NCBI GenBank assembly: GCA_049968235.1
Contig: JBMFRC010000029.1
Coordinates: 1-35,103 of the forward strand
Reading direction: 5' to 3'
From: Candidatus Hydrogenedens sp.
GTDB taxonomy: Bacteria; Hydrogenedentota; Hydrogenedentia; Hydrogenedentales; Hydrogenedentaceae
Length of the DNA: 35,103 nucleotides
Numbering within the stretch: the stretch's first letter is position 1; every line of letters begins with the position of its first letter. The position numbers and the translations under genes are program-made. Below, piece after piece: positions 1,017 to 3,589 of the stretch. Below the pieces are notes generated by a model. The model saw only the letters and a list, made by a program, of their open reading frames with translations, was not told the origin of the DNA and searched no databases.

Positions 1017-2036
1017 TCAGATAATCTTTTTAACTAATTTCTCAATCTCTGTGTATTTAACGAGAGAATTATAATCAAATAAGCAGCTCATTGCTTTAGA
1101 AACTACCTCTACACCATTTTCTGTTAAAACAGCAATTGGATTTAATCCTGCCAAAACAAGAATACCTGTTCTACCATTGGGAACAGACATATCCATGATC
1201 GGTTGGTTGGGCGTCCCGAATGCAAGAATTCCCCCTAACAAACATTTCTCAACTTCTTTTGACAATTCCTTTGCTTTGTTAAGTGAAACAGAAGGTATCT
1301 CACGGAAACTAACACCGATAACTCCGTTTCCTGTCTTTGTTGCAGACCATACATTTGTCATTCGTCCCCGTATGAAAATTTCAAGTGGGTCTATTGTAGT
1401 TCCGTCATAACTTATGATTTGTGTGAAACGTTTGGGTTCCCCATCTTCTAACTCTACAAGTGTCCCAAAACGGGAAGTCATTGGAATACCATATCGGAGA
1501 AATATCCCATTCAGACTAACACTGCAAATAGTCCCAATGGCTATGTGTTTTTTAGGAACACGAAAAGAACCTAATGTCTGTTCTTCATCAACAATGGTTA
1601 ATAATTTCCCCATACCCAGATTTTTCTCATAAACTTGAGATATTTTATTAATGTATTTAGGGAAATGTTCTTTTTTCAGATAACTAATATTTAATATTAT
1701 GTTCCCCTGTTTTTTTTCAAGGTCAAAATCCATGCGAAATGCTAACTCTTCTACTTTGGAAGAAACAAAACCCACTTTATCTACCGCAAGTTCTGTTTCC
1801 AATTCTTCCCTGCCACGGTTCGTAATTTTTCTCCCTTTTCTACCTAAATTCTCCGTCCAACCCATACGGTCAGTCAGTATCAAATAATCACGAATAGCAC
1901 GGTCTGTTAATTCTATTCCTGATAATCGTAATATTTCAGAAATACGTTCACTACCAATAGGTTCTTCATTGTTTGACAAAACATAAAGTATTGCTTGAAG
2001 TTGCCTTTTTATTTTTATATCACGAAAACTTTTCAT
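1017..2036 (-). CDS. nrpR: NrpR-like transcriptional regulator: an N-terminal RNase-R-type winged helix plus a single NrpR regulatory (DUF128) domain.
   Basis: The N-terminus (ILYVLSNNEEPIGSERISEILRLSGIELTDRAIRDYLILTDRMGWTE..GRKGRKITNRGREEL) matches the NrpR winged-helix consensus (HTH_12 type). The ~340 aa size fits single-domain NrpR homologues. Two GGAA-spacer-TTCC palindromes, the NrpR operator signature, lie in its upstream intergenic region. It is transcribed divergently from gdhA. Confidence 0.55.
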   Translation of the reverse strand: MKSFRDIKIKRQLQAILYVLSNNEEPIGSERISEILRLSGIELTDRAIRDYLILTDRMGWTENLGRKGRKITNRGREELETELAVDKVGFVSSKVEELAFRMDFDLEKKQGNIILNISYLKKEHFPKYINKISQVYEKNLGMGKLLTIVDEEQTLGSFRVPKKHIAIGTICSVSLNGIFLRYGIPMTSRFGTLVELEDGEPKRFTQIISYDGTTIDPLEIFIRGRMTNVWSATKTGNGVIGVSFREIPSVSLNKAKELSKEVEKCLLGGILAFGTPNQPIMDMSVPNGRTGILVLAGLNPIAVLTENGVEVVSKAMSCLFDYNSLVKYTEIEKLVKKII

Positions 2037-2057
2037 AATAGTCTCCCTAAGACTAAA

Positions 2058-2075
2058 AGCGGAAATATTTCCGCT
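2058..2075. promoter_or_regulatory. Perfect 18-bp palindrome AGCGGAAATATTTCCGCT (GGAA-N4-TTCC core). Candidate NrpR operator in the nrpR leader, possibly autoregulatory.
   Basis: Read directly: positions 2058-2075 are self-complementary. This lies 22 bp upstream of the nrpR start codon at 2036. Its half-site CGGAA and flank TTCCGCT are shared with the second palindrome at 2178-2193. Confidence 0.45.
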
Positions 2076-2139
2076 TATTTATTTATATCATATTTTACAC
2101 AAAACAAAATATATCGTCAAAATATCTATATAATTTGAT

Positions 2140-2170
2140 TTGAAAACATTAAATTATTTGTATTATAGTA
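2140..2170 (+). promoter_or_regulatory. Putative sigma70-type promoter of gdhA: TTGAAA -35, then a TATTAT/TATAGT -10 region with a TG just upstream.
   Basis: TTGAAA is at 2140-2145. TGTATTATAGT is at 2159-2169 after a 15-19 bp spacer. The GGAA-N6-TTCC palindrome follows immediately downstream. The RBS AAGGAG at 2234-2239 sits 6 nt before the ATG at 2246. Confidence 0.3.
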
Positions 2171-2177
2171 TCCAAAT

Positions 2178-2193
2178 CGGAAGTGTGCTTCCG
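2178..2193. promoter_or_regulatory. Palindrome CGGAAGTGTGCTTCCG, an exact GGAA-N6-TTCC. Candidate NrpR operator overlapping the start region of the gdhA promoter.
   Basis: Read directly: CGGAAG (2178-2183) and CTTCCG (2188-2193) are reverse complements around a TGTG spacer. GGAA-N6-TTCC is the published NrpR operator consensus in methanogens. The site lies just 3' of the predicted -10 and ~50 bp upstream of the gdhA ATG. Confidence 0.5.
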
Positions 2194-2245
2194 CTAACTT
2201 ACTGTTTATTACTAATAATAAAACTTTTACATAAGGAGCTTTCAA

Positions 2246-3589
2246 ATGTCGTATATTGATGATGTAATGGAACTCGTATTAAAAAGGAATCCCGCTGAAC
2301 CAGAATTCCATCAAGCGGTGAAAGAAGTACTGGATTCTATTAAACCAGCAGTCGATAGGCATCCAGAATTCAAAGAAAATCGAATTTTAGAAAGATTAGT
2401 AGAACCTGAACGAGTTATTATGTTTCGAGTTCCATGGATTGACGATAAAGGAAAGGTACAGGTAAACCGGGGATTTCGTATTCAATTTAATAGTGCCATT
2501 GGACCTTACAAAGGAGGATTACGCTTCCATCCGACCGTTTATTTGGGCATCTTAAAATTCTTAGCTTTTGAACAAATATTTAAAAATGCTTTAACAACAT
2601 TGCCTATGGGAGGAGGAAAAGGTGGTTCAGACTTTGACCCTAAAGGGAAATCCGATAATGAAGTAATGCGTTTTTGCCAATCTTTTATGAACGAATTATT
2701 CCGCCATATTGGACCGGATACGGATGTGCCTGCAGGAGATATAGGGGTTGGAGGGAGAGAAATTGGTTATTTGTTCGGACAATACAAAAAACTTAGAAAT
2801 GAATTTACGGGTGTTTTAACAGGAAAAGCCATTAACTGGGGTGGTTCGTTAATTCGTCCCGAAGCCACAGGTTATGGCTGTGTATACTTTGCTCAAAATA
2901 TGCTTAAAACACGCGGAGATAGCATAGATGGAAAAACATGTTTGGTTTCCGGTTCAGGAAATGTTGCTCAATATACAGTTGAAAAATTAAATCAATTGGG
3001 TGCTAAAGCCATTACTCTTTCCGATTCCGATGGAACTATTTATGACCCTGCGGGAATTGATGCGGAAAAATTAGCATTTGTTCTGGAACTCAAAAATGTC
3101 CGGCGCGGAAGAATAAAAGAATATGCAGAGAAATTTAAGGGTGTTCAATATTTCCAGGGACAAAAGCCGTGGAAAATTGCGAAATGTGATTGTGCTTTCC
3201 CGAGTGCTACTCAAAATGAAATCGATGCTGAAGATGCTCAGGCATTGGTTAAAAATGGATGTTTCCTTGTTGCTGAAGGTGCTAATATGCCTTCAACACC
3301 GTCAGCAGTCGATATTTTCCATGAAAATGGTGTACTCTTTGCTCCGGGTAAAGCATCAAATGCAGGTGGTGTAGCTGTTTCAGGTCTGGAAATGGCACAA
3401 AATGCACAACATACAAATTGGACCCGTGAAGAAGTAGATAGACGATTACAAGAAATCATGAACGCAATACATCAACAGGCTTACGAAACTGCGGATGAAT
3501 ACGGCTATCCCGGCAATTATGTGATAGGTGCAAACATTGCAGGTTTCATGAAGGTTGCTACTGCCATGTTAGACCAGGGTGTCGTGTAA
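2246..3589 (+). CDS. gdhA: NADP-specific glutamate dehydrogenase.
   Basis: 447 aa. It has the hallmark Glu/Leu/Phe/Val dehydrogenase active-site motif [16 protein letters not shown] and the GxGNVA Rossmann motif (SGSGNVAQY). Length and ordering are typical of bacterial GdhA. A strong RBS is present. Confidence 0.95.

Follow-up and report, generated by a model that had tools for sequence, protein, structure and literature searches.

In a 35 103-nt stretch of DNA from Candidatus Hydrogenedens sp. (the whole stretch is hereafter called the window), two palindromes with the same half-sites lie between a pair of divergent genes, nrpR, which encodes an NrpR-type regulator, and gdhA, which encodes an NADP-specific glutamate dehydrogenase (GDH). 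One palindrome, at the gdhA promoter, has the form GGAA-N6-TTCC (hereafter, the N6 site), and in the other, in the nrpR leader, the half-sites are 2 bp closer (the N4 site). By comparing the window with 80 further nrpR loci, we found that both the palindromes and the gene pairing are conserved across phyla. We consider it probable (roughly 0.7) that NrpR binds both palindromes and represses gdhA, and that it is released by 2-oxoglutarate.

An NrpR-type regulator divergent from gdhA

The original prediction described the 339-aa minus-strand protein as NrpR-like with a single regulatory domain, and the hidden Markov models of Pfam bore this out. The HTH_12 model (PF08461) scored 45.5 bits over residues 15-79 (cut-off 21.4, E = 7e-12), and the NRD1_2 model (PF01995, 'NrpR regulatory domains NRD1 and 2') matched residues 88-325 once, covering 236 of its 238 positions (267 bits, E = 1.3e-79); the protein thus strongly matches an NrpR-specific model and not a generic helix-turn-helix model alone. 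The protein belongs to the NrpR family and has the one-NRD architecture named 'NrpRI'. No NCBIfam model matched it. We collected 700 homologues, a part of which are named NrpR or NrpRI by the source databases, and some bacterial homologues carry the JGI label 'global nitrogen regulator NrpRI'. An NrpR fragment from a Ca. Hydrogenedens metagenome-assembled genome was 100% identical across 75% of the query, further homologues bear the names Ca. Hydrogenedens or Hydrogenedentes, and the NrpR and GDH proteins of Ca. H. terephthalaticus were 92% and 97% identical to those of the window, respectively. With its nearest relatives in Ca. Hydrogenedens, the window is bacterial DNA of Hydrogenedentota. 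The sole solved structure matching the protein was PDB 3NEK (MJ0159, nitrogen repressor-like; E = 5e-29, query residues 81-331), and the best conserved NRD motifs, GT[VI]CSV[ST]xNG and Y[DE]G[TS][ST][LI]DPLE, are also present in this archaeal protein.

The gdhA product scored 776 bits against the NF006929 equivalog for NADP-specific GDH (cut-off 536), and the Pfam domains found were ELFV_dehydrog and ELFV_dehydrog_N. The spacer between the two genes is AT-rich and 209 nt long (2037-2245). An operator-like GGAA-N6-TTCC palindrome had been claimed for this spacer, and CGGAAGTGTGCTTCCG was located exactly at 2178-2193, an exact fit to GGAAN6TTCC, the consensus that experiments have established for the NrpR operator of archaea (PMC2723118). 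The site starts 8 nt past the predicted –10 element of gdhA and therefore covers the start region of transcription (approximately +2 to +17), and it ends 52 nt before the ATG. The original prediction had overlooked the second palindrome, AAGCGGAAATATTTCCGCTT, which is more widely conserved than the first. Its core, CGGAAATATTTCCG (CGGAA-N4-TTCCG, 2060-2073), lies 23 nt before the nrpR ATG and 18 nt past the predicted nrpR –10 element, and the centres of the N4 and N6 sites are 119 bp apart. In an alignment of the spacers from five Hydrogenedens genomes (the window and loci L001-L004), the mean column identity was 76%, and the conserved islands were the N4 core (14/14 invariant), the –35 and –10 elements of gdhA, the N6 site and the AAGGAG sequence. 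The predicted nrpR promoter was only partly conserved in this five-genome footprint, and such predictions were not in excess over shuffled sequences.

Conservation of the palindromes across genomes

The comparison set consisted of 80 nrpR loci (L001-L080) on one-genome-per-species contigs, fetched with an alignment of 23 homologues, so that there were 81 loci including the window. With an identity of at least 60% as the threshold for gdhA orthologues, 33 loci and the window provided 34 nrpR/gdhA intergenic regions. In an unbiased palindrome count over these 34 spacers, CGGCA-N4-TGCCG was the commonest by far, and CGGNA-N6-TNCCG was recurrent too. An exact CGGNA-N4/6-TNCCG palindrome was present in 28 of the 34, compared with a mean of 0.53 and a maximum of 4 in 300 dinucleotide shuffles. 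Moreover, in the non-coding DNA of all 81 loci, CGGNA-Nx-TNCCG matched 39 times at N4 and 16 times at N6, and 0-3 times at each of N2, N3, N5, N7 and N8; matches per kb of coding DNA were alike for all spacings.

The flanks of the N4 and N6 sites agreed outside the search pattern, with W at position –3 and mostly W at position –2, and at position 6 most N4 half-sites had A and the N6 half-sites had A or G. In both spacing classes, the half-site is accordingly WWnCGG[C/A]A, and these shared flank preferences argue for one binding protein. The half-site of the original prediction stood for the window's own clade, where it is CGGAA; outside that clade it is mostly CGGCA. The putative recognition helix of NrpR (residues 43-52) also differs, reading TDRAIRDYL in the GGAA-operator clade (the window and L001-L004) and SER[TA][IV]R[NYF]YL in the GGCA-operator clades. 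This co-variation between the regulator and its putative operator is suggestive, and it counts as one event because the GGAA loci form one clade. An exception to the two spacings was observed in L055, where an N5 palindrome, CGGCAAGCGTTGCCG, directly follows a TTGACT-17-TAGAAT promoter upstream of gdhA. Extra palindrome matches in L007, L010, L012 and L044 were set aside; they precede spurious or unrelated open reading frames (ORFs) and hold no regulon information.

Upstream of gdhA, the GGAA-N6-TTCC palindrome was exact in L001, L002, L020 and L021, and in L003 and L004 it had one half-site GGCA. The distance from the exact N6 site to the gdhA ATG was 44-58 nt in the window and these six loci, and 48 nt in L045, and many more distant loci had a one-mismatch N6 site at the same post-promoter position. 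Absence of the palindrome upstream of orthologous gdhA genes, named as a refutation of the original prediction, was thus not observed. For example, TTGACA-17-TACAAT was followed after 9 nt by CGGCGAATAGGTGCCG in L022 and after 1 nt by CGGCAATGCATTGCCG in L057. We then defined an architecture in which a sigma-70-like promoter is followed by a site (with at most one mismatch) within –2 to +15 nt. At N6 spacing and in the gdhA sense, this architecture was found in 22 of the 34 spacers, the promoters being equivalents of the type TTGACA-17-TAnnnT; 19 of these 22 had a gap of 8-11 nt. The same test with spacings of 3, 4, 5, 7 and 8 gave 2, 1, 1, 4 and 0 spacers, respectively, and the N6 spacing in the nrpR sense gave none. 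The placement of the palindrome just 3' of the –10 element, which had been noted in the window, is thus kept far beyond it.

In two spirochaete-labelled loci (L058 and L067), gdhA lies directly downstream of nrpR, and here the sites were found between the nrpR stop codon and gdhA, with none upstream of nrpR. In L067, TTGACA-17-TAAATT is followed after 14 nt by CGGCAATCAGTTGCCG, which ends ~58 nt before the gdhA ATG. It is thus gdhA that the sites go with, which is the strongest in silico argument that gdhA would be the regulated gene and that the element would be a repressor operator. Of the 48 loci holding any exact site, most had an exact N4 site upstream of nrpR. The N4 site might serve autoregulation or be an auxiliary operator.

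Pairing of nrpR with genes for enzymes predicted to consume 2-oxoglutarate

We further analyzed the genes adjacent to nrpR. In 33 of the 80 loci, gdhA was divergent and directly upstream of nrpR, to which the two loci with gdhA directly downstream are added; the records are labelled Hydrogenedentota, Armatimonadota, Verrucomicrobiota, Planctomycetota, Spirochaetota and Thermodesulfobacteriota. In 19 more loci, nrpR was divergent from a glutamate-synthase-like gene of ~530 aa, whose sole Pfam match was the glutamate-synthase FMN region PF01645 (Glu_synthase, 61 bits; e.g. L039:416-1999(-), L043:3967-5550(-) and L069:3973-5556(-)). Including the window, nrpR was paired with one of these two gene types in 55 of the 81 loci. 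As judged from their families, both partner enzymes convert 2-oxoglutarate to glutamate, and this shared consumption fits 2-oxoglutarate as the signal. The promoter followed by an N6 site preceded the glutamate-synthase-like gene in 5 of the 19 loci, a weaker tendency than for gdhA. Within ~2 kb of nrpR, glnA was found in just three loci, and glnB in none of the 80.

Another gene, for a PPDK_N (PF01326) ATP-grasp protein of ~870 aa, occurs in ~25 of the 80 nrpR loci (e.g. L007:1559-4189(-), L012:1564-4194(-), L050:7045-9657(+) and L079:7003-9633(+)) and is absent from the window. In loci of Hydrogenedentota it immediately follows gdhA, in those of the deltaproteobacterial type it immediately follows nrpR, and no NCBIfam model matched its product at the cut-off. 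This protein may belong to the same functional module as nrpR and gdhA. In addition, L076:151-2778 contains two divergent nrpR paralogues, the second with 36% identity to the window protein (tblastn), and the DNA between them holds one site of each spacing, CGGCAACCATTTGCCG (N6) and CGGCAAATTTGCCG (N4).

Proposed mechanism and alternative explanations

In the mechanism that we propose, a dimer or higher oligomer of the NrpRI type would bind CGGAAG-N4-CTTCCG at 2178-2193 and, sitting over the start region 8 nt past the –10 element, would block RNA polymerase and repress gdhA. Binding to CGGAAATATTTCCG in the nrpR leader would most likely bring about autoregulation, or else this copy could act as an auxiliary operator. 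Binding of 2-oxoglutarate to the NRD domain would release the repressor, so that GDH would be made when its substrate accumulates. We infer NrpR to be the binder, repression to follow from binding and 2-oxoglutarate to be the inducer; the induction step is extrapolated from archaeal NrpR, which 2-oxoglutarate releases from the operator (PMC11957540, PMC9765008).

Several points weigh against this mechanism. Induction of GDH at high 2-oxoglutarate, a signal of nitrogen limitation, would be opposite to the enteric pattern, and a single protein would need to fit both the N4 and the N6 spacing, which is unusual. Promoter-like matches in the AT-rich spacer were no commoner than in shuffled sequences. 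Taken by itself, the N6 site does not reach statistical significance in the window: GGAA-N6-TTCC occurs in 5 copies against 1.1 expected, and the 16-mer CGGAAGTGTGCTTCCG occurs 3 times with at most one mismatch against 0.7 expected, a number reached in 3 of 100 shuffles. Its significance therefore rests on conservation in other genomes. The other four copies (6669, 19975, 23127 and 23168) were treated as chance matches since all of them are within ORFs. In other lineages, no consistent gap was observed between the N4 sites and the predicted nrpR promoters, so that a role of the N4 site in autoregulation is tentative, and nitrogen supply reportedly does not regulate archaeal nrpR (PMC9765008). 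With respect to a wider regulon, no glnA, amtB, glnB, gltBD or nif was among the ORFs of the window scanned with Pfam. Finally, no binding, expression or ligand data on bacterial NrpR were found in the NrpR literature that we searched.

We weighed four other explanations. A clearly less likely but serious one accepts that NrpR controls gdhA through the palindromes and assigns a different logic to the control, namely glutamine or glutamate as the effector, 2-oxoglutarate as a co-repressor, or an activating N4 site. The N4 site of several Hydrogenedentota loci is 46-49 nt upstream of the point where a predicted –10 element ends, and hence just upstream of a –35 element, which resembles the position of an activator; by contrast, the N6 site directly after the –10 element is in the position of a repressor. 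The bacterial proteins are just distant relatives of the one solved archaeal NRD, and the search found no ligand data for any bacterial member, but the best conserved NRD motifs are common to the bacterial proteins and archaeal MJ0159, and both alternative partner enzymes consume 2-oxoglutarate. That the palindromes are operators of another, unlinked transcription factor, with NrpR residing beside gdhA for some other reason or regulating only distant genes such as glnA or amtB, appears unlikely because the sites follow nrpR across several phylum labels, being present upstream of nrpR even where gdhA is missing, and because the N6 site of the window is the archaeal NrpR operator consensus. The half-site also varies by nrpR clade, GGAA occurring with TDRAIRDYL and GGCA with SER[TA][IV]RNYL, although this is a weak argument since GGAA is confined to one clade. 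In favour of another factor, an exact site near nrpR is missing from 33 of the 81 loci.

Both elements lie downstream of predicted transcription starts, and 2057-2076 was flagged as terminator-like on both strands, with 8 pairs followed by a T-rich tail. The palindromes could thus be conceived as RNA hairpins in the 5' leaders of gdhA and nrpR, with a role, for example, in attenuation, termination or stability. We regard this as very unlikely, since what is kept goes beyond pairing: the CGG/CCG triplets are retained across phyla together with the WW flank preference, and mixed half-sites break the stem without compensation (CGGAAGTAAACTGCCG in L003 and L004, CGGCAAATTTTCCG in L031, and also in L027 and L045). 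Often, the half-site nearer to the promoter is degenerate (CGGCTG, CGGATG) and the distal one is kept, and L002, L003 and L004 lack the T-run that follows the N4 stem; for the last reason and the broken pairing elsewhere, the terminator or attenuator reading of 2057-2076 was rejected. Searches with Rfam 15 found only a transfer RNA (tRNA) in the whole window and just chance matches below the gathering score in 1980-2300. The GGCA...TGCC elements might also be taken for sigma-54 (–24/–12) promoters, on which nitrogen genes often depend, as CGGCA-N-TGCCG superficially resembles TGGCAC-N5-TTGCA. Here spacing was decisive, and we rejected this reading as having next to no likelihood: sigma-54 requires 10 nt between GG and GC, but this distance is 7 in N4 and 9 in N6 palindromes, and N7 was not enriched (one non-coding match). 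Furthermore, the window sites, which read TTCC, do not contain the GC dinucleotide, and the elements are symmetrical and placed after canonical sigma-70 –35 and –10 elements. Control of gdhA by a 2-oxoglutarate-released NrpR repressor remains the explanation that we favour.

Other features of the window

The features of the locus are summarized in Table 1. A terminator scan gave 2 matches against 0.1 expected at the hairpin beyond gdhA, which is common to gdhA and a convergent gene for a BFN-domain (bifunctional nuclease) protein at 3684-4184(-).

Table 1. Features of the nrpR/gdhA locus (coordinates refer to the window)
Feature	Position	Strand	Basis
nrpR, NrpRI-type regulator, 339 aa	1017-2036	-	Winged helix-turn-helix and one NRD regulatory domain
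nrpR ribosome-binding site AGGGAG, 6 nt before ATG	2043-2048	-	Sequence reading
N4 palindrome AAGCGGAAATATTTCCGCTT, proposed second NrpR operator, nrpR leader	2057-2076		1 match against 0.03 expected
Predicted nrpR promoter: –35 TTGACG 2120-2115, –10 TAAAAT 2097-2092	2092-2120	-	Consensus scan 10/12; weak call
Predicted sigma-70-type gdhA promoter: –35 TTGAAA 2140-2145, spacer 18 nt, –10 TATAGT 2164-2169	2140-2169	+	Consensus scan 10/12
N6 palindrome CGGAAGTGTGCTTCCG (GGAA-N6-TTCC), proposed NrpR operator, gdhA start region	2178-2193		Exact match
gdhA ribosome-binding site AAGGAG	2233-2238	+	Sequence reading; invariant in five-genome alignment
gdhA, NADP-specific glutamate dehydrogenase, 447 aa, proposed target	2246-3589	+	NCBIfam NF006929, Pfam
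Hairpin, 12-bp stem, 7 GC pairs, terminator-like on both strands, end of gdhA unit	3631-3659		Terminator scan

At the left edge of the window, an ORF of 324 aa (11-985(+)) without any Pfam match has its counterpart in the C-terminal portion of a protein of 755 aa in L002 (7040-9307). The gene for this longer protein is convergent with nrpR in L002 and lies just beyond the nrpR 3' end, and the synteny is conserved. Two of the GGAA-N6-TTCC matches, GGAATGGACATTCC and CGGAATTACGGTTCCG, are 27 nt apart (23127-23181) in a UPF0047 (YjbQ-like) gene at 22874-23290; being coding sequence, they are probably there by chance. The only RNA gene of the window, a tRNA-Arg with the anticodon CCT (23373-23447), is located between this UPF0047 gene and a gene for a YchF-type GTPase. 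The region 24677-32989 encodes a 1994-aa bacterial alpha-2-macroglobulin (MG2, bMG3, bMG5, bMG6, bMG10 and A2M domains), directly followed by a gene for a PBP1c-type transglycosylase/transpeptidase of 773 aa that carries a BiPBP_C domain, a known A2M-PBP1c gene pair.

Novelty and implications

The RegPrecise database may list NrpR regulogs for some bacteria. In the literature that we searched, no study of bacterial NrpR or of its control of gdhA was found, the relevant NrpR papers among those listed being all archaeal, and searches for DUF128, PF01995 and COG1693 returned nothing relevant. The sole co-mention of NrpR and gdhA that was found concerns a Sulfolobus Lrp. The presence of NrpR in 'certain Bacteria' is mentioned in passing (PMC2723118). 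The earlier statement that bacterial NrpR homologues are scarcely characterised therefore agrees with our search, which found no function assigned to them, and gdhA, proposed as a new regulon member, is not among the published archaeal NrpR targets. The NrpR family, the one-NRD architecture and, in archaea, the GGAA-N6-TTCC operator are already known. What we did not find in the literature are the apparent sigma-70 setting, gdhA or a glutamate-synthase-like gene as the putative target and the N4-spaced class of candidate operators.

A nitrogen regulator acting on a nitrogen-assimilation gene would by itself be unsurprising, and NrpR studies to date have dealt with methanogens only. The nrpR loci provide a testable regulon for the bacterial branch, consisting of gdhA or the glutamate-synthase-like gene, together with an operator model, CGG[C/A]A-N4/N6-T[G/T]CCG, in which the operator lies 8-11 nt past the –10 element in most loci; it is the module and this operator/promoter model that make bacterial NrpR testable. 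With odds that we judge to be even, bacterial NrpR could be a cross-phylum module of nitrogen/carbon control, under the six phylum labels named above and others, i.e. a 2-oxoglutarate-sensing repressor that acts on sigma-70 promoters of GDH or of a glutamate-synthase-like FMN protein through the half-site WWnCGG[C/A]A, at N6 spacing at the target and at N4 spacing near its own gene, and that replaces the NtrC, GlnR, NtcA or AmtR circuits, so that the substrate itself would induce the synthesis of glutamate. If this is true, many uncultivated phyla would gain a direct control loop from 2-oxoglutarate to glutamate, gdhA would join the NrpR regulon, and an archaeal-type repressor would be at work on bacterial sigma-70 promoters. 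The annotation of 'NrpR regulatory domain-containing' genes, of which metagenome-assembled genomes hold hundreds, would also improve.

Comparison with known systems

In bacteria, nitrogen-status factors such as NtcA (a cyanobacterial CRP-family activator that senses 2-oxoglutarate), Nac, AmtR, GlnR and TnrA act on ammonium-assimilation genes, including gdhA in several species. They belong to unrelated families (CRP, LysR, TetR, OmpR and MerR) and use other operators. To our knowledge, none of them has an NRD sensor domain, and we know of no established arrangement among them in which a repressor directly on the gdhA promoter senses the substrate of GDH itself.

The closest parallels are archaeal. 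NrpR of Methanococcus maripaludis, a euryarchaeal protein that represses nif, glnA and glnK-amtB (Lie & Leigh 2003 and Lie et al. 2005, as cited in PMC2723118 and PMC9765008), combines a winged helix with the NRD (PF01995), as does the protein described here. Its operator GGAA-N6-TTCC is matched exactly in the window, and in both systems the target is a nitrogen-assimilation gene. The nif genes of M. maripaludis have two operators (Lie et al. 2005, as cited in PMC9765008), and the region described here likewise has two palindromes. The systems differ in that the M. maripaludis protein has two NRD domains and the window protein one, and in that the former acts on archaeal TATA/BRE promoters whereas the window site follows a bacterial sigma-70-type –10 element. 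Archaeal targets comprise nif, glnA, glnK-amtB, molybdate transporter operons and an alanine symporter gene (PMC2723118), and gdhA is not among them. In addition, archaeal nrpR is reportedly not nitrogen-regulated (PMC9765008) whereas the nrpR leader in the window holds a palindrome, and the N4-spaced class of candidate operators, of which we found no description for archaeal NrpR, is present at the window locus.

MJ0159 of Methanocaldococcus jannaschii (PDB 3NEK) shares the core motifs TICxVxLxGIFLR and YDGxxxDPxExF with the window protein. The 3NEK chain contains the archaeal NRD only, without a DNA-binding domain, and in its alignment query residues 223-241 face a gap and several residues are substituted. 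Methanosarcina mazei NrpRI (Weidenbach et al. 2008, 2010, as cited in PMC11957540) has targets that differ from that proposed for the window, and it is reported to act together with an NRD-only NrpRII contacting archaeal TBP and TFB; neither such a partner nor this machinery is expected in a bacterium. In architecture, M. mazei NrpRI is like the window protein, with a helix-turn-helix and a single NRD in ~330-340 aa, and 2-oxoglutarate-dependent release from DNA is reported for its family (PMC11957540).

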